Below the pieces are notes generated by a model. The model saw nothing but the letters and a program-made list of their open reading frames with translations. It was not told the origin of the DNA and ran no database searches. This document shows positions 42,679 to 64,000 of a DNA stretch of 64,000 nt, piece by piece. How positions within the stretch are numbered: the stretch's first letter is position 1; each line of letters begins with the position of its first letter. Both the position numbers and the translations under genes were made by a program. This DNA is from Candidatus Latescibacterota bacterium (GTDB taxonomy: Bacteria > Latescibacterota > UBA2968 > UBA8231): assembly GCA_964291625.2 (NCBI GenBank), contig OZ220089.1:1760001-1824000 (forward strand). Direction: 5' to 3'.

Positions 42679-44043
<1,365 letters not shown>

Positions 44044-44047
<4 letters not shown>

Positions 44048-45113: not shown

Positions 45114-45482
45114 CCATCAAGCGCTCCCTGGACCATGGCCTATCCCCGTCAGAGATGTCCTGCCGACACAGACGACGGCTCGCACAAGGATCTCTCCTCG
45201 GAGTCCGCCCCAGCGCCGATGCCCGGACAGCTTTCCAGGAGAGCCAAGGCCCCTTCCTCCAGGGTCGCGATCTCCAGAAGGCGGTCGTGCAGTCGGTCCA
45301 GGATTGACTCCGTCGCTTTCACATGACCCTTCAGGCAGAGGTTTCTCAGGACGAGCCACTTCTGGGTAATCCTTCGCAGTTGGTCCCCCACATGCGTGAG
45401 TCGCGAATCTCCCACAACCTGAGCTGCTGCCTCGAGGTACTTCCCGTGCCGATCTCGCTCTATCACCACGTTTCGCATTTGA
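45114..45482. repeat. Direct repeat B, copy 1 (3' third of the BtrH-like gene)
   Basis: Colinear with 63463-63833 from CCATCAAGCG to GTTTCGCATTTGA, with scattered substitutions. Confidence 0.92.
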
Positions 45483-46207
45483 TAGTACATCTCCTTGAGG
45501 CGAATCCGCGCCTGATCGGCTTCCAGTTCCTTCCAGCAGGCGAAGTCCCGGGCCAGTCGTCGCAGTCCCCCAAGGCCCAGGGATTCCTCGCCCGTGGATG
45601 TCTCCAATCGCATGGCCTCGAGATTTCTCCGGATGGCCCCTACCGCCTGCCCTCGCGTGAGCCTCCAGCGCGGCTCCGGGCAATGATAGTCCATCCAGGT
45701 ATATTGCGGGATACCCTCTGATCCCCAGACTTCCTTGATGGCCGAGAGGGGCAAGTCCCCCCGGAACTGCACAGGCCAGGCAGGGTCGACGACGTGCACC
45801 GTCCCTGCCGCCTCGTCATAGCCGGCGAGAATGATGTAATGCTCCGAGTGACGCCTCCGGTGGCCAGGGAAGTAATGGGTCCGGAGATGGTAAGTGTCGG
45901 CTGCAGCCACCACGGGATGGCCCTGAGCGATCCGCGCTCTGGCATGCGCCCAAGCGGCCTCTCCGTCTGGATCCTGGTGATTTGCTATTCGGATACTGCA
46001 TCTCCGCAGGCTCTCGATAAAAGGAACGAGACGGTCAATGAGGCGCATATCTCCATCTTCAGGTCGCACGTAGCCAAAGACCCATGCATCGTGCAACACG
46101 AGTGGGACGCAGTACCCATGAAACCTGAGAAGGGCCTCCATGGCACTGAGACCGCAAGGGTAGTACTCGCAGTTCCCAAAGGGCACATCCAGCACGATTC
46201 GATTCAT
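45149..46207 (-). CDS. BtrH N-terminal / DUF4872-like protein (papain/C39-like fold, putative ACP-dependent acyltransferase or peptidase)
   Basis: Start MNRIVLDVP. Early Cys (YYPCGLSA), PVVAAADTYHL, HSEHYIILAGYD...VHVVDP (Cys-His-Asp triad pattern), helical C-terminus ending LLEIATLEEGAL. Confidence 0.72.
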   Translation of the reverse strand: MNRIVLDVPFGNCEYYPCGLSAMEALLRFHGYCVPLVLHDAWVFGYVRPEDGDMRLIDRLVPFIESLRRCSIRIANHQDPDGEAAWAHARARIAQGHPVVAAADTYHLRTHYFPGHRRRHSEHYIILAGYDEAAGTVHVVDPAWPVQFRGDLPLSAIKEVWGSEGIPQYTWMDYHCPEPRWRLTRGQAVGAIRRNLEAMRLETSTGEESLGLGGLRRLARDFACWKELEADQARIRLKEMYYQMRNVVIERDRHGKYLEAAAQVVGDSRLTHVGDQLRRITQKWLVLRNLCLKGHVKATESILDRLHDRLLEIATLEEGALALLESCPGIGAGADSEERSLCEPSSVSAGHL

Positions 46208-46809
46208 TGTTCCCCCTTGTGGCAACCGGGGCACTGCAAGGTCATTGCAAAGACGTGCATTCCAGGGTTGTCCGGAAGTTCTATCGCTGCCAGGCACTCC
46301 GTTGGGTCTATGGCTACCGTCTGGAGCCATATACCGTAGTCAACGCCGAGAAGATCGGTATGGACATCGTGCGTGAGGAAGTGATAACCTCGGCATTCAA
46401 TGGCAACGCGCTCTCCGTACTTCAAGTCGTGACGCAGGCGCCAAGAGCTGAATCCCAGAGGCGTCTCATGTTGCCTGCCACTGACATACACGAATCGGAT
46501 GACATCTTCCAGGCTGTTCTCCTCCGCAGCGCCCAGCAGGAAGAGGTTGGCGAACGTGGCTTGCGATACGGAGATGCGTTGTCCTTCCATCGAAATGTTG
46601 TTGTTCAGGCCGTCTCCCTTGTCGGGGAAGCGAAAGGGCACGCCATGGCACACCACCAGAGCATTGGAGGGCGGCAAGTCCTCCGCTGGATAGGTAACTC
46701 CCTGTCCGGCGAAATCGCCATCCCCACGATTGTGGTCGAATGAAATCCCGTCGTTGTTGAAATAGGGAGTCAGGTCGAGAATCTGACAGGCAATCCAGGG
46801 ATTCGTCAT
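46204..46809 (-). CDS. Hypothetical beta-sandwich protein
   Basis: LDLTPYFNNDGIS, TYPAEDLP, GVPFRFP, LFLLGAA, IELPDNPGMHVFAMTL. Resembles accessory domains of some glycosidases. ATGA-coupled on both sides. Confidence 0.55.
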   Translation of the reverse strand: MTNPWIACQILDLTPYFNNDGISFDHNRGDGDFAGQGVTYPAEDLPPSNALVVCHGVPFRFPDKGDGLNNNISMEGQRISVSQATFANLFLLGAAEENSLEDVIRFVYVSGRQHETPLGFSSWRLRHDLKYGERVAIECRGYHFLTHDVHTDLLGVDYGIWLQTVAIDPTECLAAIELPDNPGMHVFAMTLQCPGCHKGEQ

Positions 46810-47204: not shown

Positions 47205-50200
47205 TCATGCCGCCCGCAATCCCGGCGCATCCCTTCTCATCAGAAGAAGCGGCACCACCAGCACCAACAGCACAGAGGAAGAGATCAGGCCGCCCGAGGT
47301 CCCGAGGGCCAGGGTGTACCAGAAGTCGGAGCGGTTCCCCTGCAACAGGAGAGGCACGAATCCCACTACCGTGGTGAAGGTGGTGATGAAGATCGGCCGC
47401 AGGCGCTGGAAGGCGGCCCGGATGACGGCCTCCTTGGGGGAAGAAGGCTGTCCCTTGAGGGCGCTGGAAACATGGTGCACGAGCAGGATGGAGTTGTTCA
47501 CGGAAATGCCCATCAGCAGCAACAGCGAGGCGTAGCCGCCCTGGTTGAAGGGGGCGTGTGAAAGGTAGAACCCGGCGCCCACGCCGACGAGGGTCAGGGG
47601 CAGGGCGATGAGCACCAGCAGCGGCTTTGTCCAGGATTCGAACAGGGCCGCGGTGACCATCCAGACCAGCAGGACCGAGAGCAGCAGGATCAGGGCCAGC
47701 TCTCTTTCCTCCCCTTTACTGAATCCCGTCCAGGTCCAGCCTCCCGACAGGCTGTACCCGTACGGCACGGGGGTGTGGTCGAGCAGGTCCTGGACCACTC
47801 TCCTGCTGTACGTCCAGTCCCCGAGGATGGTGAAGCCGACTCTCTTGAGGTAGCGCTGGTTTTCGCGTTGTATCGCCGGCGGCGCCATCTGCTTGCGCAC
47901 CTCGCCCACGTCACCCAGCCGGGCGGCGTGTCCATTCAGGAGAACCTGGTTCAGGGCGCGCAAGTCGGTTTGATCGCCGGCCGTATCGACGACCTCGGCC
48001 GGGTACTGGCGCCGGTCGACGTAGAGGTCTCCGACTTGGGCGCCCCGGTCGAGCCGGGTCTGTATCTCGTCTATGACCTCGGCGTGGTCAATTCCCAGCG
48101 TCGCGGTCCTGGCATGATCGATCCGGGCCAGCATCTCGTAGCTAAGCGAGCCGTGGGCGTAATCCAGGCGGATGTCCTTGATCCTTCGTGAGCGGCGTTC
48201 CCGCAAGCGCTCGGCAACCGCCTCGGAAATCTCACCCACCTTACTGAGATTGTACCCCTTGATCTTTAGCGACCGGGTCACGGAGCGGCTCAGGCTTCGG
48301 CCCGCGGGGTCGAGGTCCTTGCCGTACACCCAGTAGGAGACGCCGCCGAGATTGGCTCCATACGCCACCAGTTGGTCGTAGAGCACGTAGGGCAACTCGG
48401 TCTTTCGGTACTCCTCCTTCAGCAACACCTGGATAAGGCCGCTGCCGCCCCAGGTCTGGGTGATGATTCCCTTGACGTAGGGAGCGAAGGGGTACAACTG
48501 CTTTTCGAAGCCTTGTAAAAGGCCGTCCATCCTGCTTATGTGGGAGTTGCCCGGCATCCTGAGGAACACGCTGAGTGAGAATCCCTCGACCGTCTCCCTC
48601 AGGCGTCCCCTGTAATGACTCCTGTCCAATCGCGAGCTGACGTCGTGGTACAGGTAATAGCTCGCCCCTCCGAACAATCTGAAGAGCACAGGTCTGGCGC
48701 TGCCGATGGCGCCCCACACTCCGTTGTAGAGTTGTGTCCCGCGATCGGCGAGCCGTTCGCGGAGCGAGCCCCAACCCTGCTGCTCGTCGAGATGTGTTAC
48801 ATGACGATCGAGCATGCCGGCGTCGAGAGAGTCCCTTGCCGCCAACCACTTGCGGTACTCCTGGCGCGTTTCCACCTCTCCGGGCGCCTGTCTTTCGACC
48901 CGCCGCGGGCCCTTGCCGATCTCGGGCGGCAGCAGCCAGATCGGAAGCCCCACCATCCACGCCACCAGCCCCAGTACCCATGCCCTGCGCCGCCGACAGC
49001 GGTCGAGGATGCTTCGGTAGCCGCGGTACAGGCGGCCCTCGCCGAAGGGCCGGGGACGGACGAGCGCGGTGCGGCAGAAGAAGACGGGGATCAGGGTGAG
49101 GGAGATGACCAGGGCGAGGGCGAGGGTCAGGCCCAGGGAGAGGGCGAAGGACTTGAAAAACCGCTGCAGCTCTTCGGAGAGAAACAGCACCGGCAGGAAG
49201 GCGCCGAGGGTGGTCAGGTTGGAGACGACGATGGGGTGCGTCACCTCGCGCAGCCCCGCGGCCACGGCCTCCTTGAGATCCCCCTTGCGGACGCAGTCCC
49301 CGGCGCGGCGATGGACGTAGTCGTAGACGACGATGGCGTTGTCGACGATCAGCCCGAAGCCGAGAGTGAGCCCGGCCAGTGTGACGAGGTTGAGGTGCAT
49401 GCCGAACAAGAAGAACAGGCTCATCGCCCCGGTTACGGACAGCACCACCGAGGACAGGATCAGTAGCACGGCCTCCCAGCGCTTGAAGACCGCCAGCAGC
49501 ACCAGTGAAATCAGCAGGATGGAGAAGACGGACCGCCGCAACAGAAAGCGGAGATCGGCCGCTACCTCGGCGCCCTCGTCGTTGAGCACCACGATCTCTG
49601 TTCCAGCGGGCAACCGCGCCGACAGCGCGACGAGTTCTTCCCGCACCCGCCGGGAGGTGGCGGTCATGTCGCTGCCGGCCGCATGGTCGACCTGCACGGC
49701 AACGGCGTTGCGGCCGTTGATCCGATTGAGGACCCGTGGGTCGCCGGGGTGGTAGCGGACGGTGGCGACGTCCCCCAAAGAGAGGACGCGGCCTTCCTCC
49801 AGCCGCTGCAGCGGAATCCGCCGCAGCGCGTCGAGATCCTCGATGCCCCCGGGAACCTCGATGCCGGTGCGGATGCCGTGGCCTTCCGCGGCCCCGAGGG
49901 AACGGGTCTGCATGCCGTGCGTCGCCAGCGCCCCCCTGACCGCGGCGAGGCCGATGCCGAAGCGCCGGGCACGGGCCCGATCCATTTCGATACGGACGCT
50001 CTCCTCCCCGCCGCCGTGCACTGTGACTTCCCGGACACCGGGCAGGGCCTGCAGGGGCAACCGCACCTCCTCCTCCACCAGCTTGCGCAGGTCGCTCGGG
50101 GACACGCCGCCAAGGACATCGAACCGGATAAACCCCCGGATCTCCTGGAGCAGGTCGGGTTCCGAGCGCCGCACCCGCGGCCAGGAGACCCCCTCCGGCC

Positions 50201-50561
50201 GCTCGCGGAAGAAGGAGTATATCCGCTCCCTGAGCTCCAGCTCGGCCAGTTGCAGGTTGGCGTCGCGGGCGAAGTCCGCGGTGACGAAGGCGCTCCCGTG
50301 CGAGGTGGTGGACCTCAACTCCTCGACGGCGCCCACCCCTTGCATGAGGGCTTCGAGGGGGGCGGTGATTCTCGCTTCGATCGCCGTCGCCGGGGCGTCC
50401 TGCCAGTATACGCTCACCGTGAGCCGAGGGGCCTGCACTTCCTCGGAGACGTCGATTGGTATGAGAGGGAAGCTCAGGAGACCCAGGGCGCAGAACGCCG
50501 CTCCGGCCACGCCGACGGCCACGGGCCGGTCGAGCAGGGCGCGAGCGGTTCCTGCACCCAT
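47205..50561 (-). CDS. RND efflux permease subunit (AcrB/AcrD/AcrF family)
   Basis: IEARITAPLE, LAGLTLGFGLIVDNAIVV, ALFESW, GISVNNSIL, RLRPIFITT. Confidence 0.9.
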   Translation of the reverse strand: MGAGTARALLDRPVAVGVAGAAFCALGLLSFPLIPIDVSEEVQAPRLTVSVYWQDAPATAIEARITAPLEALMQGVGAVEELRSTTSHGSAFVTADFARDANLQLAELELRERIYSFFRERPEGVSWPRVRRSEPDLLQEIRGFIRFDVLGGVSPSDLRKLVEEEVRLPLQALPGVREVTVHGGGEESVRIEMDRARARRFGIGLAAVRGALATHGMQTRSLGAAEGHGIRTGIEVPGGIEDLDALRRIPLQRLEEGRVLSLGDVATVRYHPGDPRVLNRINGRNAVAVQVDHAAGSDMTATSRRVREELVALSARLPAGTEIVVLNDEGAEVAADLRFLLRRSVFSILLISLVLLAVFKRWEAVLLILSSVVLSVTGAMSLFFLFGMHLNLVTLAGLTLGFGLIVDNAIVVYDYVHRRAGDCVRKGDLKEAVAAGLREVTHPIVVSNLTTLGAFLPVLFLSEELQRFFKSFALSLGLTLALALVISLTLIPVFFCRTALVRPRPFGEGRLYRGYRSILDRCRRRRAWVLGLVAWMVGLPIWLLPPEIGKGPRRVERQAPGEVETRQEYRKWLAARDSLDAGMLDRHVTHLDEQQGWGSLRERLADRGTQLYNGVWGAIGSARPVLFRLFGGASYYLYHDVSSRLDRSHYRGRLRETVEGFSLSVFLRMPGNSHISRMDGLLQGFEKQLYPFAPYVKGIITQTWGGSGLIQVLLKEEYRKTELPYVLYDQLVAYGANLGGVSYWVYGKDLDPAGRSLSRSVTRSLKIKGYNLSKVGEISEAVAERLRERRSRRIKDIRLDYAHGSLSYEMLARIDHARTATLGIDHAEVIDEIQTRLDRGAQVGDLYVDRRQYPAEVVDTAGDQTDLRALNQVLLNGHAARLGDVGEVRKQMAPPAIQRENQRYLKRVGFTILGDWTYSRRVVQDLLDHTPVPYGYSLSGGWTWTGFSKGEERELALILLLSVLLVWMVTAALFESWTKPLLVLIALPLTLVGVGAGFYLSHAPFNQGGYASLLLLMGISVNNSILLVHHVSSALKGQPSSPKEAVIRAAFQRLRPIFITTFTTVVGFVPLLLQGNRSDFWYTLALGTSGGLISSSVLLVLVVPLLLMRRDAPGLRAA

Positions 50562-50565: not shown

Positions 50566-53500
50566 TCAGCCCCTCGTCTTGACCACCACCGAGTAGAGCA
50601 GGGGAACGACGACGAGGGTCAGCAGGCTGGCCAGGGTGATGCCGCCGACCACGGCCCAGGCCAAGGGGTGCCGCAGCTCGGCCCCACTGCCGCTGGACAG
50701 GGCCATGGGCAGCAGGCCGCAGACCGTGGTCATGGTGGTCATGCAGATAGGGCGAAAGCGCATGCGGCCGGCTTCGGCAATGGCCGCCCGAAGATCGCCT
50801 CCGACGCGGAAATGCGAGTGGATGAAGTCGACCTTGACGATGGAGTCGTTGACGACGATCCCTACCAGTACGATGCATCCGAGCAGGGACATGACGTTGA
50901 GGCTGTGGCCGGTCAGCCACAGGGTCAACACCACCCCGGCCACCGCCAGCGGAACCGCGGCGACGATGACAAAGGGGACGACGAGGGACTCGAACTGGGC
51001 GGCGAGAATGAAGTAGACGAGAGTCACGGATATGGCGAGAACTACGTACAGGCTGCGGTACTGCTCCTGCCGCTCCGCCTCCTGCGACCCGGTGTCGATC
51101 CAGTAGCCGCCTGGAACTTCCAGGCGATCTAGCAGCGGCGCGAGCCTCGCGTGGGCTTGCGCGAGGTCGATCCCTTCGAGGCCGGCCGTTATGGTGACGG
51201 TGAGCGCGTGGTCTTCGCGGTGGATCTCTTCGTACCCCAAGCCGGGATCGAGCCGGATCAGTTCGGAGAGTGGCACCTCCACGGTCCTGCCTTCCCGACG
51301 GACGGGGTAATGCATGTTGAGCAGGTTCCAGGGGTCCATATCATCACGGCCCTCGGGGAGCAAGCGGATGTCGATGTGTTCGACGAAATCAAGGAATTGG
51401 GTCGGTGTACTTCCCTGCAACTGCCGCTCGATGAAATCGGTGAGGTCAGCAACGCGAATGCCGTAGGTGATGACGGCGTTACGGTCGACCACGAGGTTCA
51501 AGGCGCGCTTGCTGGGCCGCAGATTCGAGCTTGGGTTCACGAATCCTTTCGTCTGCTGCAGGTATTCGACGATCTGACCCCCGAGGTCCGCCAAGGTCTC
51601 CACTCCTGGACCGACGATTCTGAGGTCAAAGGAGGCGTCTCGCGTCTGGAACAAGTGTTCGAAGACAGTTTCCGGCTGTTCCACAACAAAGGTCATCCCG
51701 CTGAAATCGACGAAGACCCGCTCCAGGTCTGCCGCCACCTCCCGGCTACTCATGCCTTCCTCGATTTCGATGTCCATGACCGCCTTGTTCGGACCTGGTT
51801 GACGCTTCAAGTCGACTCTTCCGGTGATGCCGACCGAAGAGAGCACGGACCGCACCCCTTCCTCCTGGAGCAGGAGACGCTCAAGCCGGGTGACTTCCGC
51901 GGTCGTCGCCGCCAGGCTCGCCTCGGCGGGCAATTGTGCACGGACCACGAGGTGTTTCCTGTCTACGGACGGCATGACCTCCCGGTCGAGGTGCTCCGCC
52001 ATCCACACGCTCAACAGCAGCAGAAGCAGCACCGCGCCCAGCACCTTGCCTCGGTGGTCGAGAGCGCGGCTGAGAACTCGCTCGTACAAGGTGGAGATGC
52101 TGCTGAACATGCGCTGGAAAAGGTGGACAGACCAAGTGAACAGGCGCAGGGGGAGTCGCAGTAACAGAAACAGGGCGCGACCGAACAACCGGAAGCAGAA
52201 GCGCACGGGCCGCAGGAATACGGGCGCAGGCCCGCCTGTCCCTGCCTGCGGGCGGCTTGGAACAGAAGCCTCGTTTCCCTGACTCCGTGAGGAGAGCATC
52301 GGCAACAAGGTGATCGATACCAGCAGCGAGACGGCCAGAGACAGGGAGATGGTGACCGCCTGCTGGTAGAAGAGCGCCCCGGCGATTCCTTCGACGTACA
52401 CCATGGGCATGAAGACGGCCATGGTGGTCAGGGTCGAGGCGGTGATGGCCAAGCCCACCTCCGTGGTACCGGTAACGGCAGCTTCGCCAGGGGCAAGTCC
52501 CGTTTCGCGATGGCGGTATATGTTCTCGAACACGACGATAGAGTTGTCCACCAAGATGCCCATGGCCAAGGCCAGCCCGCCAAGGGATATGATGTTGAAG
52601 TGAATGTCGAGGAGATACATGAGGACGAAGGTGGTCACCATGGAGACCGGTATCGACAGACCGACGACGAGCGGATTCCTCAGATCCCGGAGGAAGTAGA
52701 CGAGGGTGAGGATGGCGAACACTGAGCCGAGATAGAGCGCCTGCAGGACGCTGTCTATCGACTCGCGGATGAACTCCGCCTGGTCGAAGACCGCCCGCAC
52801 GGCGAAATCGGGGTAGTCTCGGGAGAACCGGTAGAGGTCGCCGTACACCCTGCGCGAGGTCTTGACGGTGTTGGCTCCGGCCTCCTTGAACAGGTGCAGG
52901 GTGATGACCTCGTGGCCATTGAAACGGGTGTATCCACGGCGCTGCTGGTACCCCTCCTCGATGCGGGCGACCTCCTTGAGGCGGATCAGGCGGGGCTCAA
53001 GTCTCACGGGGATCTGCCGGATTTCGTCGAGGCTGGTGAACTCCGCCTGTATTCTCAGGGGAAACTCTGAATACCCGTCGCGAATGACGCCGCCGAGGCC
53101 TGCAACGTTGAACTGCTCCAGGCTCCTTTCCACCTCGGTGAAACCGACACCGTAGCGGCGGCTTTTCTCGACGTCGAGGAAGACGTTGATCTCGCGGTCG
53201 AGACCGCCGGCCACCTGCACCCAGGCCACACCGTCGAGTTGCTCGAGCCGGCGCTTGACGACCGCCTCGGCGACTCCTTTCAGCTCCGTCAGAGCCTCAT
53301 GGTAATCCCGGGTGGAGCGGGGGTTCTCGACCCTTTCCCCGGTGACGACCAGCGTCATCACAGGTGCCGCGGAAGGGTCGAAACGCAGGATGTTGGGATG
53401 GTCGGCGGCCCTCGGCAGACGTACTTGGTCGAGATAACCGCGCAATTGGATGAAGCCGAGGTCCATGTCGCTTCCCCAGCGGAAGCGGACGTCCACCAAG

Positions 53501-53766
53501 GAGAGGCCATCCCGCGAAACCGACTCGATGCGGCTCACACCGCTTACGGCGCTGATCGTGGCCTCGAGCGGACTGGTGACGTACTCATCCACATCGCGGA
53601 CGTTCATGCCCGGCACATCCGTGCGCACAAGGAGCCGGGGCACGTCAATCTCGGGCAGAAAGTCAACGCTCAGCCGGAAGAAGGAGTAGACCCCCATCAT
53701 GGCCGCGGCCAGGAAACAGACCGTGGTCGCCACCGGCCGATGCACTGCGAACCTCACGACACGCAT
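50566..53766 (-). CDS. RND efflux permease subunit (AcrB/AcrD/AcrF family)
   Basis: AVHRPVAT, SLGGLALAMGILVDNSIVVFENI, LAAQFES, GIVVNDSI, RFRPICMTT. Confidence 0.93.
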   Translation of the reverse strand: MRVVRFAVHRPVATTVCFLAAAMMGVYSFFRLSVDFLPEIDVPRLLVRTDVPGMNVRDVDEYVTSPLEATISAVSGVSRIESVSRDGLSLVDVRFRWGSDMDLGFIQLRGYLDQVRLPRAADHPNILRFDPSAAPVMTLVVTGERVENPRSTRDYHEALTELKGVAEAVVKRRLEQLDGVAWVQVAGGLDREINVFLDVEKSRRYGVGFTEVERSLEQFNVAGLGGVIRDGYSEFPLRIQAEFTSLDEIRQIPVRLEPRLIRLKEVARIEEGYQQRRGYTRFNGHEVITLHLFKEAGANTVKTSRRVYGDLYRFSRDYPDFAVRAVFDQAEFIRESIDSVLQALYLGSVFAILTLVYFLRDLRNPLVVGLSIPVSMVTTFVLMYLLDIHFNIISLGGLALAMGILVDNSIVVFENIYRHRETGLAPGEAAVTGTTEVGLAITASTLTTMAVFMPMVYVEGIAGALFYQQAVTISLSLAVSLLVSITLLPMLSSRSQGNEASVPSRPQAGTGGPAPVFLRPVRFCFRLFGRALFLLLRLPLRLFTWSVHLFQRMFSSISTLYERVLSRALDHRGKVLGAVLLLLLLSVWMAEHLDREVMPSVDRKHLVVRAQLPAEASLAATTAEVTRLERLLLQEEGVRSVLSSVGITGRVDLKRQPGPNKAVMDIEIEEGMSSREVAADLERVFVDFSGMTFVVEQPETVFEHLFQTRDASFDLRIVGPGVETLADLGGQIVEYLQQTKGFVNPSSNLRPSKRALNLVVDRNAVITYGIRVADLTDFIERQLQGSTPTQFLDFVEHIDIRLLPEGRDDMDPWNLLNMHYPVRREGRTVEVPLSELIRLDPGLGYEEIHREDHALTVTITAGLEGIDLAQAHARLAPLLDRLEVPGGYWIDTGSQEAERQEQYRSLYVVLAISVTLVYFILAAQFESLVVPFVIVAAVPLAVAGVVLTLWLTGHSLNVMSLLGCIVLVGIVVNDSIVKVDFIHSHFRVGGDLRAAIAEAGRMRFRPICMTTMTTVCGLLPMALSSGSGAELRHPLAWAVVGGITLASLLTLVVVPLLYSVVVKTRG

Positions 53767-53778: not shown

Positions 53779-54969
53779 TCAGTCCTGGACCACCACTATC
53801 TTGGCGTCGTGGCCCAGGTTGAAGTGGCCGGCCACGATCAGCTCCTCGCCTTCGCTCACCCCTTCGGTGATCTCGATGAAGTCGTCGTTCTCCAGCCCGG
53901 TCTTGACGTAGCGCCACTTCGCCAGCCCTCCCTCGCGCACGAACAGAAGTTTGCGGTCATCGCGCACGAGGAGGGCGTCCCGGGGCACGAGCAGCCGCCG
54001 CACGAACAGCCTCGTCTCGACCGCGACCTGCGCGAACATGCCTGGCTTGATGCGGTGGCCGGGGTTGTCGATGCGGATGCGGACATCGCAGGTCCCGCTC
54101 TCCGGGTCGACTACCGGGCTGACCGCCGCAATGACCCCCCGGAACTGCTCCCCGGGGAAGGCATGGGGTCGGATGGAGACTTCGGCGCCGGCCTGCACCA
54201 GGCGCAACTCGCTCTCGAGGATGCCGACTTCGAGCAGCAGCGGATCGGGGGCCACCAGCCGCATCAGCTTGCCGCCTTGCGAGATCGTGCCGTTGAGGGT
54301 TGCCTCCAGCCCGGTCACGTACGCGTCAAACGGGGCTCTGACCACGGTATGCTCGAGGTCGAGCTCGGCCCGTCGCAGGCCGAGCCGAGCCCGGGTGAGT
54401 CCCGTGGTGCTGGCGATCCACTCCTTGGGCGCGTACTCGGCGAACAACCTCAGGGCGGTACGGTCATTGGGATCAGTCGTGTCGGCCGCCGCCGCGATCT
54501 CATCCCGGACGCGGCCGGTTCGTTGCAGTTGCCTGCTCAGCAGGGCGACCGAGGCGTACTCCCGGGCCGAGCGAGTCACTACGTCCCTGGCCAGCAGGCA
54601 GGCAATCTCGTACGGCTCCGGATCGATCTCAAGAACGAGATCCCCTTCGCGCACGAAGCTGCCCTCATCGACGGCAAGACGGATCACCGGCCCCGACACC
54701 CGGGCGACGAGATCGGTCTCGCGGTGGGCGATGAAGACGCCACCCGAGGAGATCCGCTGTACGAGGTCGCGACGGCGGATCTCTTCCACGGCCACCGGCG
54801 TTACCGGGGGCTCGATCGGGGGCAGCTCGTCGAGCGCGCGCCCTTTTTCGAGCGAAATCTCGTCCGCCCCGCCTGCATCCGTGCCTGTCGACGTGGAGTC
54901 ATCGACCAACGCCCACACCGAGAGCCCCACCCCGAGCCCCAGGAGCACGTAGAGGAGGTTCTTCAACAT
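53779..54969 (-). CDS. RND periplasmic adaptor (membrane fusion protein)
   Basis: N-terminal TM, RVSG.V..LAVDEG..V.EGD, VRAPFD, ISPVVD-like, IKPGMFA, VKTGL. Confidence 0.92.
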   Translation of the reverse strand: MLKNLLYVLLGLGVGLSVWALVDDSTSTGTDAGGADEISLEKGRALDELPPIEPPVTPVAVEEIRRRDLVQRISSGGVFIAHRETDLVARVSGPVIRLAVDEGSFVREGDLVLEIDPEPYEIACLLARDVVTRSAREYASVALLSRQLQRTGRVRDEIAAAADTTDPNDRTALRLFAEYAPKEWIASTTGLTRARLGLRRAELDLEHTVVRAPFDAYVTGLEATLNGTISQGGKLMRLVAPDPLLLEVGILESELRLVQAGAEVSIRPHAFPGEQFRGVIAAVSPVVDPESGTCDVRIRIDNPGHRIKPGMFAQVAVETRLFVRRLLVPRDALLVRDDRKLLFVREGGLAKWRYVKTGLENDDFIEITEGVSEGEELIVAGHFNLGHDAKIVVVQD

Positions 54970-54978: not shown

Positions 54979-56868
54979 CTACTTCTTCTTGTCGGCGAAA
55001 TACTCGACCACTACCTCGACGGCCTTCTCAATACCGGCCTCGGAGGCGATCGATACAGCCGGCCGGTCGAAGGTCTCTTCGAGGTGCCGCAGCTTGCGAC
55101 GGCTGTCTTCCTCGGGCATCTGCCGGGGTTTGATCGAAGTGCGTCCGTACGCCTCGCGCACATGCTTCGCCTTGTCGCTCATGGCCAGCAGCAGGACCGG
55201 GGCCTGGGATATGGCCCGAATGCCGTCCATAGTGTCCCGTATATAGTCGTCGGTGTCCACGCTGTTGACCACGAGCAGGCAGGCGTCCGGCTTGACTCCC
55301 ATCAGGAAGGCGAGGGAGGGCAGGGTGTGGGTCTGGGGTTCGCTGACGTTGTAGGGCACGGTGCCGGACTGGCTGCCGGCCAGGATCAGGTGCGGGCTCC
55401 TGCGACGGTTGATTTCGCGTAGCTTGGCGTCGAGGTAGGGGGCGTAGAAATCGAAGGGTATCTCCACCGACGGGGCGTACCCTATCGGGAACGCGCAGTC
55501 CATGCCAAACAGCCCGGAGTGATGCTCCGTGCCGAGCTGGCCAACCCGGTAGCCCAGTTCCTGCAGGCGGCGGCGCAATCCCAGTTGCAGGGTGAACTTG
55601 CCCTGCTGCGAACTGGTGCCCATGACCGCGATCACCGGCACGTCCACCGCAGGGTACTGCGACGCCGAGTCGAGGGTGTGCCGCGCTTCTTCCGCCGACA
55701 GCGCGGGATAGTACAGGCGAAGCCCCTTGCTTTCTGCCCGTTCGTACAGGTCGGCGTAGCGCTCGCGCGGCAGCGCAAGCAGGCTGAAGACGTGAACGCC
55801 CTGCTCCAGCGCCTCCTCGACGGCTTCGCGCAGCACATCTCTATTTCGGATGCGGCCCAGCTCATCTACGTACCCGAGGATGAGGGTGTCGGCCCCCTGC
55901 AGGGCCGCGGCGAGGCGAGGGGCGATGCGCAGGCCGGCCGAGGACAGGCCGACCGCCTTGGCGGCGTCCTTTCCGACCAGACCCTTCCCGGCTGGATCGG
56001 CCACACCGACGATCTCGAAGCCGAGCAGGTCGCGCGCCCGCACCAAGGCGTGCATCTCCTTGTTGTAGGGGTAAAGGGCCGCTTTCCCGATCCAGGCGAA
56101 TGAGTCCTCCGTTCCGTGTGGTTCTGAAGGTTTGGTTGCTTTGGGCGGGGCCGGCTCAGGGTGGGCATTGGCCTGCAACAGTGCCCGCATCTGCCCCAAG
56201 GAGGCACATGGGTGTGCCTCGCGGATCAGGGCGAGCAGACCGCTAATATGGGGGGCGGCAAAGCTGGTGCCCCCGAGCAGGATCTCGCGCGGCTCCAGCC
56301 AGCAGAGCCGCTGCGGGTCGCCACGGGCCAGGCACTCGATAGCCGCGCCGACGCGGTAGTGGTACTTGTAGAGACCGCGCACCTTGCCCGCTCCGACGCC
56401 TATGACTTGGGGCAACAGGGCCGGCCAGCTCTCCCGGCCTTCTTCGTGCTCGGCCGCGACGAGCAAGACGCCTTGGTCCACGGCCTCTTGGCAGACCTCC
56501 TCCAGGGCGTCGCGATGCCCCACCTCGGTGGTTCCCAGGCTCAGGTTGACGAGGTCCATTCCCTGGTCCACCGCCCATTTGATGGCCGCGATCAGCAGGC
56601 GGGGGTCGGCTGCAAGGGATTCATCGAAAATCCGTACGCTGTGCAGCTCGGCCTCGGATGCCTTGCGGCGGACAAGCCCGGCGCAGGCGGTACCGTGGCC
56701 GGCGCAATCGGAGTAGTCGTCGCTTTGTACCGGTTCGCCGGCCGGCCCCAAGCTCAGGCCGACGCCGCCGGCCACCGGCCCGACTTTGGGGTGGTCGGGA
56801 ACTATACCGCTGTCGACCACCGCCACCTTGACGCCTCGTCCGGTCCGGTTCGCAAAGGGAAACTTCAT
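54979..56868 (-). CDS. S8 (subtilisin-like) peptidase fused to a DUF1611-like P-loop domain
   Basis: Start MKFPF. Catalytic triad VAVVDSG / GHGTACAG / GTSFAAPH. No signal peptide. C-terminal half KAALYPYNKEMHAL...PVIAVMGTSSQQGKFTLQL.LRR.L...GYRVGQLGTE. Confidence 0.85.
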   Translation of the reverse strand: MKFPFANRTGRGVKVAVVDSGIVPDHPKVGPVAGGVGLSLGPAGEPVQSDDYSDCAGHGTACAGLVRRKASEAELHSVRIFDESLAADPRLLIAAIKWAVDQGMDLVNLSLGTTEVGHRDALEEVCQEAVDQGVLLVAAEHEEGRESWPALLPQVIGVGAGKVRGLYKYHYRVGAAIECLARGDPQRLCWLEPREILLGGTSFAAPHISGLLALIREAHPCASLGQMRALLQANAHPEPAPPKATKPSEPHGTEDSFAWIGKAALYPYNKEMHALVRARDLLGFEIVGVADPAGKGLVGKDAAKAVGLSSAGLRIAPRLAAALQGADTLILGYVDELGRIRNRDVLREAVEEALEQGVHVFSLLALPRERYADLYERAESKGLRLYYPALSAEEARHTLDSASQYPAVDVPVIAVMGTSSQQGKFTLQLGLRRRLQELGYRVGQLGTEHHSGLFGMDCAFPIGYAPSVEIPFDFYAPYLDAKLREINRRRSPHLILAGSQSGTVPYNVSEPQTHTLPSLAFLMGVKPDACLLVVNSVDTDDYIRDTMDGIRAISQAPVLLLAMSDKAKHVREAYGRTSIKPRQMPEEDSRRKLRHLEETFDRPAVSIASEAGIEKAVEVVVEYFADKKK

Positions 56869-58664
56869 GGGGCTACCGCCGCGCTGGTGCGGGCCTCGCC
56901 TTGCTGGTGAACAAACCGCGCGTAATACCCGTGCCGCGAAAGGAGGACGGCGGGCGAGCCTTGCTCCACCACTCGGCCCTCGGACAGGCAGATCACCTCG
57001 TCCACCCCCTGCACGGCGCTGAGCCGGTGGCTGATCAGGAGAATCGTCTTGTCGTGAAACCGTTGCCCCAGGAGACGGATGATTGCTTCCTCGCTCTCCG
57101 CGTCCAGCGCCGAGGTCGCTTCGTCGAGGATAAGCAACTCCTTCGGCCACAACAGGGTCCGCGCCAAGGCGATCCGCTGTTGCTGGCCACCGGAGAGTTG
57201 CCCGCCTTGCTCCCCGACCTTCGCCTCCACATCCAGATCGTTCAGGCGGACCTGTTGGATCACCTGCTCAATCTCCGCCGGGTCGCGCTGGAAATTGCCG
57301 TAGCGGACGTTGTTCTGGATCGTATCGTCGAACAGGTGGACTTGCTGGCTTACCAAGCCGACCTGCTCCCGCAGCTCGCGCAGGCTGATCTCCTCGAGCG
57401 GCACCCCGTCTACGAGAATGCGGCCCTGGCCGGGTTGATAGAATGCACATAGCAGATGCGCCAGGGTCGTCTTGCCGACGCCGCTCAGGCCGACAAGGGC
57501 ATACGTCTTGCCCTTGACCAGTTCCAGGTTCAGGCCCTGCAAGACGGGTTGGTCGTCGAAACGAAAATGAACGTCCTGCAGTTCAATCGCGTGCTCATAG
57601 GTGAACGACCGGTGGCCTCTGTGTGTGTCTTCCTGGGTCGGAACCTGCATGAACTCCAGCACTCGCCGCATCGAAACCAAACCCCGTACGAGGCTCATGT
57701 AGAGATTGTGCAGTCCCTGGATCGGGCCGAACAGGCGCCTGGTGTATTGAAGGAAGGCAATCAGGGTACCGAGCGTCATGACGCCCTGTATCACCTGATA
57801 CCCGCCCCAGCCGAGGATCACCGCCGGGGTCATCATGACCAGCCCCGACGAAACCGTGCTCATGGAAACCGAGTAGCGGACATTCCGCATGGCAATGGTG
57901 ATCATCGCATTTATGGCCGAGGCGAAACGACCGGTCTCGTGGCCGTCACTGTTGGCGAGTTGGATCAGCGGTACGTTGGTGAACCGCTCGATGGTAAAGC
58001 TGGAAATCCCGGCTCCCTGCTGCTGCAAGGATTCGACGGTCTCTCTGATTCGTGGTTGAAAGTACAGCAGGTTGCCTACGAACAGGGGAACGACCGTGAT
58101 GGAGAGCAGAAACAAGGTGACGTTCAGCCAGCACAAAACGATCACCAAGCCGATCAGGGTCAGGATGCTGTGCAGGAAACGGAGCACGCTCGAGGTCAAG
58201 ACCGATTGGACTACTCCCACGTCGTTGTTCAGCCGAAAGACCAGTTCCCCGGTTTTCTGCCGGTGATGAAAGTCGATCGGCAGGTTCACAAGATGTCGAA
58301 AGAGATCTACCCGTATGTCCCGCACAACGCGATTGCCAGCCCAGTTATACAGATAGTTGGACGAAGCAGAGAGAACCAATCGAGTCGCGCCAAGGATCAA
58401 CAATACGGCGAGGGCCATCAACAATGAATCGAGCTGTCTAGACGGCAGTACATCATCGATGATGACCTTGATGATATACGGCGGCGCCAAGGAGAGGGCG
58501 GTCACACAGAGCACACAGAGCAGTACGAACAGCCATTGGTACCAGTAAGGGAGCAGGTACCGAATGAACCAGATGGCTATGGACCGGGCGGTCGCGGAAT
58601 CAGACACCCTGGCCTCCATTAGACGAATGTAGGGAATCCACCGATTTTCCCCCTTAAGGGACAT
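56865..58664 (-). CDS. ABC exporter, fused TMD + NBD (no C39 domain)
   Basis: TM domain, Walker A GLSGVGKT, LSGGQQQR, LILDEATSALD, ISHR. Alternative start at 58619. Confidence 0.93.
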   Translation of the reverse strand: MSLKGENRWIPYIRLMEARVSDSATARSIAIWFIRYLLPYWYQWLFVLLCVLCVTALSLAPPYIIKVIIDDVLPSRQLDSLLMALAVLLILGATRLVLSASSNYLYNWAGNRVVRDIRVDLFRHLVNLPIDFHHRQKTGELVFRLNNDVGVVQSVLTSSVLRFLHSILTLIGLVIVLCWLNVTLFLLSITVVPLFVGNLLYFQPRIRETVESLQQQGAGISSFTIERFTNVPLIQLANSDGHETGRFASAINAMITIAMRNVRYSVSMSTVSSGLVMMTPAVILGWGGYQVIQGVMTLGTLIAFLQYTRRLFGPIQGLHNLYMSLVRGLVSMRRVLEFMQVPTQEDTHRGHRSFTYEHAIELQDVHFRFDDQPVLQGLNLELVKGKTYALVGLSGVGKTTLAHLLCAFYQPGQGRILVDGVPLEEISLRELREQVGLVSQQVHLFDDTIQNNVRYGNFQRDPAEIEQVIQQVRLNDLDVEAKVGEQGGQLSGGQQQRIALARTLLWPKELLILDEATSALDAESEEAIIRLLGQRFHDKTILLISHRLSAVQGVDEVICLSEGRVVEQGSPAVLLSRHGYYARFVHQQGEARTSAAVAP

Positions 58665-58859
58665 CTACTTTCGCGCACCCCGCGATCCGTCCCTCGGCAT
58701 CCCTGGAGGAATCGTTCCTCAGCCAAGGGGGCCGCGCATGACCAAGTTGCGGGACGAAGATCTGGTGTGTGTGCGCAAGTCTTGACCGTCCAAGGCGGTC
58801 ACAGCGTTCGCTCGTGATTCGGACGTGGATCCAGGGGACAGCACGAGCGTCTGCAAGCG

Positions 58860-59182
58860 GGCCAGCGGCCTGAGCCGGTGCGGGCCTTTACGACACCCTG
58901 GTCCGCGAGCACGGCCACCGGGGGACCTACAAGGCGGTGGCCTATGTGCGCCGCCGCCGGCCGCCGCCGAAGGTGCGGCCCCTGCGTCGGGTGGAGGTGC
59001 GGCCGGGCAGCCAGGCGCAGGTAGGACTGGGTCGAGCCCTGGGTGCACGTGCTCGAGTTTGCACGGTCGCACCCGGCTGAGCGCCTTCAGCCTCTCGCTC
59101 AGCTCTTCGCGCATGTGGTCGGTGCAGTGGCGGCTCGACCAGCGCCAGCTGTCCTGGCAGGAGGCCCACACAATCGCGCCTT
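58860..59182 (+). mobile_element. IS21-family istA transposase remnant (frameshifted)
   Basis: Across frames reads LYDTLVREHGHRGTYKAV..YVRRRRPPPKVRP..RRVEVRPGSQAQV/DW...LSAFSLSLSSSRMWSVQWRLDQRQLSWQEAH. Cut off by an IS3 end at 59183. Confidence 0.72.
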
Positions 59183-59320
59183 TGGAGTTGACCCGCTTTG
59201 GTGGACACGCCATCTCTTGATGAAGAAAAAGGGAGGGCTGTCCAACCATGCCGAAACGCGCCCCTCACCCGCCGGAGTCCCGGCAACAGATATGATCAAG
59301 CTTGGGGCCGGCCGAGCAGG
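59183..59320 (+). mobile_element. IS3-family left end with degenerate orfA start
   Basis: TGGAGTTGACCCGCTTTGGTGGACA terminal repeat, then RBS and ATG 59248 (MPKRAPHPPESRQQ). Closely matches the reverse complement of 62266-62330. Confidence 0.75.
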
Positions 59321-59749
59321 GTCTCGGTGGAGGGGAACCTGCCGCCGCTGGAGGAGCTGCAGTCGCTGCTGCCTTCGACCCGGCTGGGGGGGGACCCGGG
59401 CCTGGGGGGTGGCGCCACCGCAGAATCGGTCTTCGCTGGAGGTCTCCGGGCCCTCAAAGAGCGGTGCTACGAGGGGTCGCACCTCCTCGGTGTACTGCTG
59501 CGTCCGTCGCCCCCGCCCCCGAGAAACTTCGATGTGACGTGGATACACCCGTTGGACCCACCAAGGGAGGCCAGCAGATCCTCAATCTGGGAGCCCAACT
59601 GCTAATCCCATCAATGGAAGGCAAAGTAGCTGCCCGGGCTTTCCCCGTTTCCGCCGAGGTGCCCCCACCCAAGCAAGCGCAGATGGGACCTGGGTCGTGC
59701 GCATGCCGAGGCGGGGGCACCAGGCCAAGGAAGGACGACTGAGCGCCCC

Positions 59750-59983
59750 TCAGTCGTCCTCCTCCTCCGGACAAGGGTCAGCCTCACAGGTACTGACACA
59801 CGAACCGTCGCCTGCCGAGCAGACGTCTTCGGTGGCCGAGGACATCACGCACGCAGTGATCTGCTTGAAACACGGCACACTCTCATAGACGATTGTAGTC
59901 ACCACCCAGGATAGGTGCTCCTCCGAGTAGGCAAGGACCGCGTGGTTGCGCCTTGCAGGCGACTTTTTTGTGAGGGCTCTCAT
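59750..59983 (-). CDS. Cys-rich 77-aa peptide, candidate RiPP precursor (CLI_3235-like leader)
   Basis: GGGAGG RBS; MRALTKKSPARRNHAVLAY-SEEHLSWVVTTIVYESVPCFKQITACVMSSATEDVCSAGDGSCVSTCEADPCPEEEDD; six Cys; co-oriented with the maturation/export genes. Confidence 0.7.
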   Translation of the reverse strand: MRALTKKSPARRNHAVLAYSEEHLSWVVTTIVYESVPCFKQITACVMSSATEDVCSAGDGSCVSTCEADPCPEEEDD

Positions 59984-60063
59984 TGGAGATGCCTCCCTTT
60001 TGAGTAGAGGATGATGAATGATAACTCTAGGTTTCAATTTGAAACCTAAGAAGTTGAGGGTTG

Positions 60064-61248
60064 CTAACCCCCGCGTCCTGAAGCCAAGGCAATTCCGTAC
60101 AGTTCGATGGTCCCATTGGAGATCTCTGACTCTTCTTCTGATGGAGGTCTCCAAATACAAAGCTGATCCTCCCAAGCTGCAATCCTGTTCCAAGGCGCGT
60201 GTACGGCCAACGGGCGGATACGCTCCTCCCAATCTGGAGTAAGACCGTACACCTTGATTGTCGACGCCCCATCCCCTTCAAGGTCGTAGATAGCCCATCC
60301 TCGGTCCGTGGCGTGAAGAACAAGTAGGTATCTATCTTGGAACAAAGTCATTCTCCTCAGGAGAGTCATCCCCGAACTCATCAATTCAGTCATCAACTCC
60401 CTGGTGCCAGTACCAACATCGTGGAATCGCCCAGGTAAGGGAGTAAACCCTTCGGGACGGAAGCCAAACCTTCTTGTGATCTCTCCTGTAGCGGCGTCAA
60501 TCTCCTTTACATGGTATTCATTAACCCCCAAGTAGTACAGCCGATGCCGGGAGGTGCTGTAACACAAGTGATACAAGCGACCCAGCCGAGCCGCTAGAAA
60601 CCGATCTCTGTCCGTGGAAACAGGAGTCTGATAGCTCATCTCCCAAGTCTTGGGATCAAGGCGCGACACCGTCACGTAACGCTCCCTTCCCAACACAAAC
60701 AGCTCTCCCTCCCGTCCGGTTAAGACACGTGTATCATCATAGCCTGTCCATTGATCCAAGTAACTTCCAAGCCGATCATATCGGATGACACCCGCAGTGT
60801 GTAGAAGGTAAACGAAACCGTTAGGAGGATCCATGGAAATAGCAAGCGGTGAAGTATACTCACCCGGCCCGGCCCCCTTCCTCCCAAATGACCGAATGTA
60901 GCGTCCGTCAAGCAAGCTGAATTCATGTGCCGCTTGGCCAACCCCATCAACGAGCAACAAGCTGCTGTCAGGGGATACGCTCATCCAATCCACCGATCCG
61001 ATGGCTGGCGCCTCTTCGTCCAAGGCCAGTTCGACCTGGCCGTGGAAGATTAGACCAATCTCGCCTGCGGGTTGTACCGGCGTCTCCAGAATGCTGGATT
61101 CATCGACCCCCTCTACTGGGCCGCTGACGAGCACCCAGGCGAGCACCAGAGTTCGGACGTATGAAAGCACCTTATTCGCAACGCAACTCCGGGATGGCTG
61201 ACCAGATCGCCGATTGTGGCGATCGGAGGGGAGAGGGAGATATCTCAT
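60064..61248 (-). CDS. 6-bladed beta-propeller (NHL-like) exported protein
   Basis: Signal-like segment VRTLVLAWVLVSG, IGSVDWMSV, YIRSFGRKGAGPGEY motif. True start probably downstream of 61248. Confidence 0.75.
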   Translation of the reverse strand: MRYLPLPSDRHNRRSGQPSRSCVANKVLSYVRTLVLAWVLVSGPVEGVDESSILETPVQPAGEIGLIFHGQVELALDEEAPAIGSVDWMSVSPDSSLLLVDGVGQAAHEFSLLDGRYIRSFGRKGAGPGEYTSPLAISMDPPNGFVYLLHTAGVIRYDRLGSYLDQWTGYDDTRVLTGREGELFVLGRERYVTVSRLDPKTWEMSYQTPVSTDRDRFLAARLGRLYHLCYSTSRHRLYYLGVNEYHVKEIDAATGEITRRFGFRPEGFTPLPGRFHDVGTGTRELMTELMSSGMTLLRRMTLFQDRYLLVLHATDRGWAIYDLEGDGASTIKVYGLTPDWEERIRPLAVHAPWNRIAAWEDQLCIWRPPSEEESEISNGTIELYGIALASGRGG

Positions 61249-61454
61249 ATGGGATCGTAATCCTGACTGTTAAGGGATGTAGGGGTCAATACCCCTGGAC
61301 GCTCACCGTCCACTTTTCACATGCTGAGTATAGCGCCACAGCGCGACCCAATCCAATAGACGCATCTTTGGTAGTCGCCTTGTGAAACTATGATTTCCGC
61401 CTTGTGCAATGTCGAGTTTCTCCTCTAATCGCTCGCCCCAGATTCTCGTTGGAA

Positions 61455-61997
61455 TTATGGATTGGGCGAGGTGGTCCCCTCGAGGATCGCATACTTGGTC
61501 AGAGAGGCCGAACTGTCCAGGCCGAGCTCTTTACTGATAACCCAGACTTGGGAGCGCACGGTTGTTTCGCTTACCGCCAATTTCGCGGCTATTTCCTTAA
61601 CTTCAGCGAGCGACGAATAGACTCGCTAAAGGCGCCGATGCAATTTCGGGCTCACGTACTGGTTTCCTGCCTCCACCTGCCGAATTGCTTCCACCAAGCT
61701 TCCGTGGCCGTCCGCTCTTCCAACATAGGCCCAGGCTCCAGCCTCCATCATCTTGCCCATGAGGCGGTCGTTGTGCACGGACAGGCCAACCAACCGGACC
61801 AGGGGGTTTTCGGCCAGTATCTGCCGCGTCGCCTGGACACCGTTCAGTTCCGGCAGGACGCACTCCATGACCACCGCATCGGGCGGACCGCCGCGAACCA
61901 AGTCGACGGCAGTACGCCCGTCTTCAGCCTCAAGCAGTACTCGCCACCCTTCCAGCGTGGTCGTGTGATCCTGTACTACCACGACACTGATGGTCAT
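61455..61997 (-). pseudogene. NarL/LuxR-family response regulator, degenerate, with in-frame TAG at 61626-61628
   Basis: Receiver-like N-terminus (PELNGVQATRQI, LVEAIRQVEAGNQYVSP) with the phospho-Asp replaced and internal deletions. After the TAG the same frame continues KEIAAKLAVSETTVRSQ...ELGLDSSASLTKYAILEG*. Confidence 0.75.
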
Positions 61998-62013
61998 GGA
62001 TGAACGTATCTCC

Positions 62014-63833: not shown

Positions 63834-63917
63834 GAAAGCTTCAGAACACGGGGCGCAACTTCCTTCTGCTTCGGACGGCTCGGCCCCATCGCGACGCTCC
63901 GGCCCGGCCCGGACCAG

Positions 63918-63938
63918 CACGAGAGCGGGTCAACTCCA
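63918..63938 (-). mobile_element. Isolated IS3-family terminal inverted repeat
   Basis: CACGAGAGCGGGTCAACTCCA matches the reverse complement of the 59183 end (TGGAGTTGACCCGCT). Confidence 0.6.
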
Positions 63939-64000
63939 CACCGGGCGCCCCCTGACAGGAGCCTACGAGCAACCGACGTACGAGAAGCTCCAAGCCATCC

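Follow-up and report, generated by a model that had tools for sequence, protein, structure and literature searches.

A precursor-type peptide gene beside a beta-propeller gene and a subtilase-DUF1611 fusion in Latescibacterota: a candidate relative of the CLI_3235-type maturation systems

The genome of an uncultured Latescibacterota bacterium (assembly GCA_964291625.2, contig OZ220089.1) carries, in the 64,000-nucleotide stretch analysed here and called the window (positions 1,760,001 to 1,824,000), a short gene on the minus strand at 59750..59983, with 77 codons and a stop, for a small peptide (protein P0001). Judged by sequence comparison, this open reading frame (ORF) is a real gene, and its product is a member of a precursor family that was previously unnamed, has no curated model and is recognised by a leader of the form ‘K-P ... 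A-Y’. Its neighbours include a gene for a six-bladed beta-propeller, an ABC exporter gene and a gene for an S8 subtilase fused to DUF1611. The system is probably best understood as a leader-guided, exported mini-protein that is cut by the S8 domain after a tyrosine and partnered with an exported propeller; that is, as a relative of the CLI_3235/TIGR04066-type systems that does without a radical S-adenosylmethionine (SAM) enzyme. Coordinates are positions in the window unless prefixed G000:C1 (the bacterium’s own genome) or by an L-number (a locus stretch), and all genes listed for the window are on the minus strand.

The gene runs from an ATG at 59983-59981 to a stop codon at 59752-59750, and is preceded, 8 nt before the ATG, by a GGGAGG ribosome-binding site (59992..59997). 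Codons 1-19 (59927..59983) specify a basic leader with five Lys or Arg and no Asp or Glu; it ends in AVLAY, and M1, L4/K6 and Y19 are conserved in the family. The 58-residue core (codons 20-77, 59753..59926) contains 13 Asp or Glu, a single Lys or Arg, 13 Ser or Thr and six Cys, at residues 38, 45, 55, 62, 66 and 71, and closes with EEEDD. The ribosome-binding site, the leader, the Cys positions, the abundance of Ser and Thr and the acidic tail had all been listed in a first-pass annotation made from the letters alone, and recounting bears them out. The same annotation described the peptide as hidden inside a 160-aa ORF. A mechanical ORF listing does extend the frame to a TTG (59750-60232), overlapping the 3′ end of the propeller gene, and has no separate entry for the peptide; the exact 77-aa protein, however, is already called, without a name, in NCBI/ENA records (on a 4.79 Mb contig), so that ‘hidden’ is true of the ORF track only. 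A perfect 11-bp hairpin that includes the stop codon (59733..59759, minus strand) is a possible attenuator, not significant against shuffled sequences (z −1.41); promoter and terminator scans gave chance-level signals only.

A paralogue lies 4.3 kb from the peptide gene, just beyond the window end (G000:C1:1824324-1824539; E 1.1e-16, 54% identity). At the DNA level the two copies are nearly identical over the leader and the ribosome-binding region, GGGAGG included, and strongly diverged over the core; the gaps in the coding part, 6 nt and 3 nt, preserve the frame. The in-frame stretch 5′ of Met1 is not conserved between them, and the start was therefore placed at Met1. Among 26 leader codons compared, 14 are identical, 5 differ synonymously and 7 non-synonymously, a sample too small to show selection. 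Variants of the paralogue are called as proteins of 71-72 residues on other public contigs.

The family extends well beyond this genome. A profile of 20 members, searched against 1.84 billion representative proteins (E<=0.001), retrieved 39 proteins, each of 37-84 residues and each aligned from residue 1. Four positions (M1, Y19, C45 and C55) are invariant across an alignment of 42 sequences; a Trp about seven residues past the leader is common (W26 in the window peptide), and an acidic residue often precedes the second Cys of the pair. The window peptide matches the leader profile from residue 1 and has the invariant Tyr at the leader end, as members of the family do, and a leader that ends in a conserved hydrophobic-x-A-Y motif agrees with the first-pass description of a precursor-type peptide. 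With W26, the C45/C55 pair (7-12 residues apart in the subfamily) and an adjacent DUF5128 propeller, it falls into what is here called the Cys-loop subfamily. When all 5.9 Mb of the genome were scanned in six frames, an iterated leader model found two peptide genes only, the one in the window at E 1.8e-6 and the other at E 0.19, with the next match at E 9.6. Leader model A2 scores the window peptide at 48 bits (E 1.1e-11), the window sequence being one of its training members. Three weaker matches are on record: a match in a same-genus genome (G002, E 0.004) contains two in-frame TGA codons; a match near the genome’s second S8-DUF1611 locus (E 0.104) was rejected, as it lies antisense inside an ABC gene; and the best Protein Atlas match, a cyanobactin-class cluster at 0.80, was within the range of shuffled sequences and hence not used.

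AlphaFold2, run on the 42-sequence alignment, gives a model with mean pLDDT 79.2, with a disordered leader and, in the core, a predicted sheet of three strands (residues 23-33, 38-48 and 60-64; block means 79-90, and 84-90 for most of the core). A Foldseek comparison of this model with the PDB returned no match at E<=0.001, the best VIA-align Z being 2.9, which is no proof of a new fold.

The leader travels with the S8-DUF1611 gene. Of 41 related genomes, 30 contain fusion genes of this kind, frequently several per genome. Eight peptides adjoining S8-DUF1611 genes supplied a leader model, which matched 21 times across 132 genomes of the class; by coordinate subtraction, every one of the 19 strong matches (E<=7.4e-5) is 1.0-9.0 kb from an S8-DUF1611 gene. 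The two weakest matches (E 0.012 and 0.042), one of them from a genome where no S8-DUF1611 was found, are probably false. A wider sample comprised 80 S8-DUF1611 loci from several phyla, one genome per species, with a match accepted at E<1 if it started at model position 1-3; 25 of these loci have one, among them loci of Firmicutes, in which the leader is of this kind and the peptides are short and Cys-rich. The tie between leader and homologous S8-DUF1611 genes that the first-pass annotation had anticipated thus stood up when examined by leader-model scans. In the window, 2.9 kb separate the peptide stop from the S8-DUF1611 start, within the 10 kb used to define the family.

The same leader is attached to other kinds of core. 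Some subfamilies have long acidic cores (127-140 aa) and others Gly-rich hydrophobic C-termini (L060 12885-14278, L071, L072, L075, L076, L078, L080); these are flanked by repeated pairs of genes for TPR and CPBP-protease proteins, not by propellers. The bacterium itself has a second S8-DUF1611 gene (G000:C1:3456341-3458227; L010 9312-11201), 48% identical to that in the window, with an ABC exporter, a Yip1/YknW-like membrane protein and MacB-type permeases as neighbours. The whole-genome six-frame scan found no leader-model match near it; orthologues of this locus (L115, L116, L120) have two to four tandem precursors with Gly-rich hydrophobic cores.

Within the Cys-loop subfamily the closest companion is the propeller. 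Among the loci examined, a DUF5128-type propeller gene lies within 350 bp of 14 of 16 Cys-loop peptides; for the other two, the propeller is 4.2 kb away in one case, and none occurs in the 2.2 kb of surviving locus in the other. None of eight loci with the other peptide types of the leader family (acidic, 127-144 residues; Gly-rich hydrophobic) has a propeller gene. In the window the DUF5128/NHL-like six-bladed propeller gene (60064..61248), the cognate neighbour of the peptide, ends 80 bp upstream of the peptide start, and its product has an N-terminal membrane anchor. Propellers of the family begin with signal peptides, lipoboxes or such an anchor, which places their action outside the cytoplasm. 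Identity between this genome’s two propeller paralogues is 82%; the peptide cores are far more divergent. A LuxR-type response regulator gene adjoins the propeller gene in both modules, intact in the paralogous one (212 aa; L011 6018-6656), and in both copies the usual phospho-acceptor Asp reads Glu.

Downstream of the peptide gene come an MsbA/HlyB-like ABC half transporter lacking a C39 peptidase domain (56865..58664), and the S8-DUF1611 fusion, TIGR04066-like (54979..56868), whose start was placed at the Met abutting the ABC stop. A profile of the protease matches subtilisin at E 6e-38. Around Asp19, His58, Asn108 and Ser202 the subtilase motifs do not vary among eight homologues, and the same holds for a Walker-A-type loop (417-426). 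The protein begins directly with the subtilase domain and therefore has neither signal peptide nor pro-domain. Then follow an RND periplasmic adaptor (53779..54969), RND pumps 1 (50566..53766) and 2 (47205..50561), an acyl carrier protein (ACP; PF00550, 46806..47117), a 201-aa AziU2-like protein without a Pfam family (46204..46809) and a BtrH_N/DUF4872 protein with a papain-like acyltransferase or peptidase fold (45149..46207), its start taken as the Met that overlaps the stop of the upstream gene. From end to end the 201-aa protein is a homologue of AziU2 (profile E 2.7e-19), and in five related clusters its gene is retained next to those for the ACP and the BtrH-like protein; its model (pLDDT 64.6) matches 7wuw and 8gs1 in Foldseek (E 1.6e-8, TM 0.60), and the Protein Atlas offers unnamed clusters only. 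AziU3/U2 acts as an aziridine synthase through sulfate displacement, according to a review (PMC12559475). A radical SAM domain (PF04055) has no match anywhere in the window (C1:1760001-1824000); the nearest are at C1:1693078 and C1:1869917, about 67 and 46 kb away. The propeller (0.54), peptide (0.59), ACP (0.55), AziU2-like (0.56) and BtrH-like (0.60) genes are low in GC for a genome of 0.70, with the S8-DUF1611, adaptor and pump genes at 0.63-0.67; this may point to a foreign origin of part of the cluster.

The cluster is conserved in Latescibacterota and Gemmatimonadota. In the six loci with the most similar S8-DUF1611 proteins (62-70% identity), genes for S8-DUF1611, ACP and the adaptor/RND proteins are present in all six, and those for propeller and ABC exporter in five, the contig of the sixth starting at S8-DUF1611. 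AziU2-like and BtrH-like genes occur together in four of the six, BtrH-like alone in one and neither in one; a family peptide gene is found in four of the five loci not truncated upstream. As far as their contigs reach, these loci keep one gene order. The window has the same gene set, but its ACP, AziU2-like and BtrH-like genes stand behind the pumps, in contrast to five of the related loci. Two of the six also have a rhodanese, a redoxin-like protein, a histidine kinase fragment and an intact LuxR-type regulator, and more distant loci have ResA/TlpA-like oxidoreductases and, in one case, a sulfotransferase. No radical SAM gene was seen among 52 ORFs scanned flanking S8-DUF1611 in seven related loci. 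Sulfotransferase and rhodanese genes within related clusters were recorded at L065 8250-9068 and 15895-16401, L114 7504-8001 and L094 5313-5810; the sulfotransferase is worth recording because AziU-type enzymes act on sulfated intermediates, and no AziU2-like gene was found among the ORFs scanned in L065.

The first-pass annotation had likened the leader to those of the CLI_3235 family, with TIGR04065 as the model to consult. As a statement of membership this fails: TIGR04065 has no match to the peptide at E<=10 (its cut-off is 26 bits) and none at the peptide locus in a whole-genome search, whose best hit elsewhere reaches 12.3 bits. Nor did it match 21 of 22 family relatives scanned; the remaining one, a Clostridia peptide, scored 10.8 bits over its leader half. 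As a statement of resemblance it fares better. The precursor of SacP23 from Paenibacillus polymyxa, as printed in Table 2 of PMC10731318, has a basic leader of 18-19 residues that ends in A-F right before a Cys-rich core, and the window leader is likewise short and basic with a hydrophobic-x-A-aromatic end before the core, a likeness drawn from that one printed sequence. The annotation’s further remark that the Cys spacing departs from the CxCxC cores of clostridial members is sound: the six Cys are spread out without a CxC repeat, and ‘new subclass’ is a fair description. It did not mention the close pairing with the propeller gene, the ACP, AziU2-like and BtrH-like genes, the lack of a radical SAM maturase, or the transposase-like fragment that has come to stand between the peptide and ABC genes.

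CLI_3235-type systems are described, in those parts of the literature that were available, only through genome mining and one heterologous expression. The Roseburia intestinalis cluster comprises five genes, for a radical SAM protein (TIGR04068), TIGR04066, TIGR04069, a subtilase and an ABC transporter (PMC4573289), and the SacP23 cluster has the same parts (PMC10731318). The window cluster, too, brings together a TIGR04066-like DUF1611 protein, a subtilase, a small carrier protein and an ABC exporter, the TIGR04066 and TIGR04069 scores being below cut-off; in Clostridia, moreover, fused S8-DUF1611 genes also stand beside short Cys-rich peptides with this type of leader. The shared leader build and the shared set of TIGR04066-like protein, subtilase, carrier and exporter are the grounds for reading the window system as a relative. 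The differences are equally clear: there is no radical SAM maturase in the cluster; the peptide fails TIGR04065 and the ACP fails TIGR04069 (12.7 bits, cut-off 70); the core is an acidic domain of 58 residues with a predicted beta-sheet, not a CxC-repeat stretch; subtilase and DUF1611 are fused; and propeller, AziU2-like and BtrH-like proteins, adaptor and RND pumps are extras. On this view the window would hold a variant, without the radical SAM enzyme, of a maturation system about which little is known, one that has gained a propeller, AziU2-like and BtrH-like proteins and an RND module. No mention of DUF1611 in connection with peptide biosynthesis turned up in the searchable literature, where its use was unrelated.

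In the mechanism favoured here, basic residues 1-19 with their hydrophobic-x-A-Y end would serve as the leader recognised by the cytoplasmic subtilase domain of S8-DUF1611. The cut would most likely fall after Tyr19, because the conserved block ends exactly there and the P1, P2 and P4 residues suit subtilisin; the classical subtilisin pockets accept Tyr at P1, a small P2 residue (Ala or Gly) and a hydrophobic P4 residue (Val or Ile). The freed 58-residue core would leave through the ABC transporter, the adaptor and RND pumps serving the outer barrier; a C45-C55 disulfide would form outside the cytoplasm, where the core would meet its cognate signal-anchored six-bladed propeller, acting as immunity protein, receptor or complex partner. 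The P-loop domain of DUF1611, the ACP and the AziU2-like and BtrH-like proteins probably add further modification. Sequence alone does not choose among three possible roles for the product: a bacteriocin to which the propeller gives immunity, a signal sensed through the two-component genes nearby, or one subunit of a complex with the propeller.

Leader-dependent class II bacteriocins and microcins offer a useful comparison. Like them, the window system has a small gene with an N-terminal leader and a variable core, a dedicated ABC exporter and an adjacent cognate gene; again like them, it comes in paralogous copies and is present in some strains and absent from others, and some of the other same-leader subfamilies have Gly-rich hydrophobic cores. 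Unlike them, it has no double-glycine motif in the leader and no C39 peptidase domain in the ABC protein; cleavage would be by a cytoplasmic subtilase, and the neighbour is a propeller of 390 residues, not a small membrane immunity protein.

Several observations weigh against the favoured reading. The peptide has no match among curated families, and a structured core of 58 residues is atypical of the classical ribosomally synthesised and post-translationally modified peptides. The curated models nearest to the fusion protein are not reached: QhpE, the best NCBIfam match of the S8 half, scores 149.8 bits where 165 is the cut-off, and TIGR04066, the best match of the DUF1611 half, scores 115.2 bits (model positions 2-360 of 361; 117.2 bits in the whole-genome search) where 200 is. 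The leader model finds nothing at 55 of the 80 S8-DUF1611 loci, some of them cut off. The paralogous peptide-propeller module has no S8-DUF1611 gene of its own (the distance is 7.6 kb), which makes the propeller, ahead of the protease, the tightest partner of the peptide. Relatives have genes for a thiol-disulfide oxidoreductase and a rhodanese, and neither occurs among the annotated cluster genes of the window. Gene, family, neighbourhood, intact catalytic motifs and extracytoplasmic propellers are shown, whereas cut site, export, propeller binding, disulfides, any acylation and biological role are conditional; no RNA run carrying window positions 59600-61300 is listed. The state of the local copy also counts. 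A transposase-like repeat fragment of ~0.55 kb (58628..59183, strand not assigned) occupies part of the 1.1 kb gap between peptide and ABC genes and covers the first dozen codons of the ABC ORF, and the LuxR-type response regulator beside the propeller (61455..61997) is broken into a receiver part (61626-61997) and a helix-turn-helix tail (61455-61580); on both counts this copy may be weakly expressed or in decay.

The repeat fragment is 91% identical to parts of two genome copies of at least 1.3 kb, which are 98.7% alike over 1342 bp and encode a transposase-like protein (G000:C1:1302099-1302771 and 1530323-1530996); frameshifted pieces at 61930-62300, with a short similar stretch at 59043-59250, resemble the N-terminal part of an IS3-type transposase. 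A segmental duplication links 42462-45700 with 63500-64000 and continues, beyond the window end, through L011 3500-9670, beside the second peptide-propeller module; duplicated there are a sigma-54-type regulator, a histidine kinase and the C-terminal part of the BtrH-like gene, of which the copy is a fragment only. In G002 (L014 2680-2940), a genome of the same genus but another species, the propeller orthologue is 91% identical; ~150 bp past its stop, all that is left of S8-DUF1611 is its final ~20 codons, and the adaptor gene follows. This deletion allele removes the peptide, ABC and most of S8-DUF1611 together, a joint loss that counts in favour of the preferred reading. The same junction, at 60064, is seen in contigs of three other public runs (X3-X5), and the peptide region is unchanged in a further run, which comes from the same study as the run that best holds it.

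How else might the gene be read? That it is no gene at all, and simply a chance ORF in GC-rich DNA, is barely credible. The ORF is short, has no curated family match and has no support from an RNA run; but the paralogue, the public protein record, the genome scan, the family of 39 members with its invariant residues and the AlphaFold model all speak for a gene, and the evidence from family and synteny refutes the chance explanation. Hardly more credible is the proposal that the peptide belongs to TIGR04065 as a canonical CLI_3235 precursor, with CcpM (TIGR04068), a radical SAM enzyme encoded elsewhere, cross-linking its Cys. The leader has the build and length of the SacP23 leader as printed, the neighbour is TIGR04066-like, and the genome has 21 radical SAM matches; against these stand the absence of any TIGR04065 match, a core without CxC repeats, the lack of radical SAM genes among the 52 flanking ORFs of the seven related loci, and a best whole-genome TIGR04068 match of 83.7 bits (cut-off 500) at C1:555588, 1.26 Mb away. 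Much more serious, while still unlikely, is that the gene is a genuine family member that survives in its own genome as a decaying relic, no longer made or matured. The repeat between peptide and ABC genes that reaches the ABC start, the split regulator whose paralogue is intact, the displacement of the ACP, AziU2-like and BtrH-like genes behind the RND genes, the duplicated fragments of cluster genes nearby and the deletion allele in other samples can all be taken in this sense. They have to be set against an intact peptide ORF with its ribosome-binding site, an intact propeller gene, an intact ABC gene (591 of 599 residues align to the orthologue), an S8-DUF1611 gene with every catalytic motif, and a peptide region identical in a second run of the study.

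Two further proposals change the role of the product. The beta subunit of quinohemoprotein amine dehydrogenase is a propeller. By analogy with the gamma and beta subunits of that enzyme, the peptide could pair with the propeller in a two-protein complex of the periplasm, as its small subunit, cross-linked after translation, and be neither a free bacteriocin nor a signal; we consider this improbable, a little more so than decay. QhpE, the curated model closest to the S8 part, cuts the leader of QhpC in the cytoplasm, and the ABC transporter QhpF then exports QhpC, a small subunit bearing Cys, Asp, Glu and Trp (PMC7876137); the processing logic deduced for the window from genes alone is similar, a cytoplasmic leader cut followed by ABC export of a small Cys- and acid-rich polypeptide. 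The adjacency of peptide and propeller genes in 14 of 16 cases, the retained Trp and Cys pair with its frequent acidic residue before the second Cys, and the predicted fold of the core agree with a subunit. The QhpE score is nevertheless sub-threshold; no QhpD, QhpG or dehydrogenase subunit genes, and no gene for a haem subunit or flavoprotein, were seen among the annotated cluster genes; the radical SAM matches nearest to this QhpD-less window are tens of kilobases off, as given above; and the cores differ strongly even between the paralogues, whose 54% overall identity is biased to the leader, where enzyme subunits are usually conserved. The other proposal, a long shot, is a hybrid product in which an amino-acid-derived unit is built on the ACP and moved onto the freed core, the decorated mini-protein then docking on the periplasmic propeller. 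BtrH is an ACP-dependent acyltransferase. The window has an ACP, a BtrH_N-domain protein and a full-length AziU2 homologue, and in this respect recalls the carrier chemistry of butirosin (BtrI/BtrH) and azinomycin (AziU2/AziU3); it departs from both in its ribosomal peptide context, neither aminoglycoside nor non-ribosomal peptide or polyketide synthase, and in having one AziU2-like gene where a pair might be looked for. Help in building the unit would come from the ATP-binding DUF1611 domain and from the AziU2-type enzyme, whose solved relatives close an aziridine ring by sulfate displacement (PMC12559475), and the BtrH-like transferase would move it onto the peptide. If this were true, a ribosomal peptide would carry a warhead made on a carrier protein and would act with a protein partner, a maturation route without precedent.

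The leader-guided, exported mini-protein with a propeller partner remains the reading we prefer, and the family deserves a name whichever role its product has, as no curated model covers it. It can be defined in three testable parts: the K-P ... hydrophobic-x-A-Y leader, the conserved Trp and Cys pair, and the fixed set of neighbours. The family forms a bridge between the poorly understood TIGR04066/DUF1611 ‘peptide maturation’ proteins known from gut Firmicutes and clusters of the uncultured Latescibacterota and Gemmatimonadota. With the radical SAM enzyme missing from these clusters, the roles of DUF1611, carrier protein and subtilase could be studied without it. The strict pairing of peptide and propeller, together with the AziU2-like and BtrH-like genes, points to undescribed chemistry or protein partnerships for ribosomal peptides.

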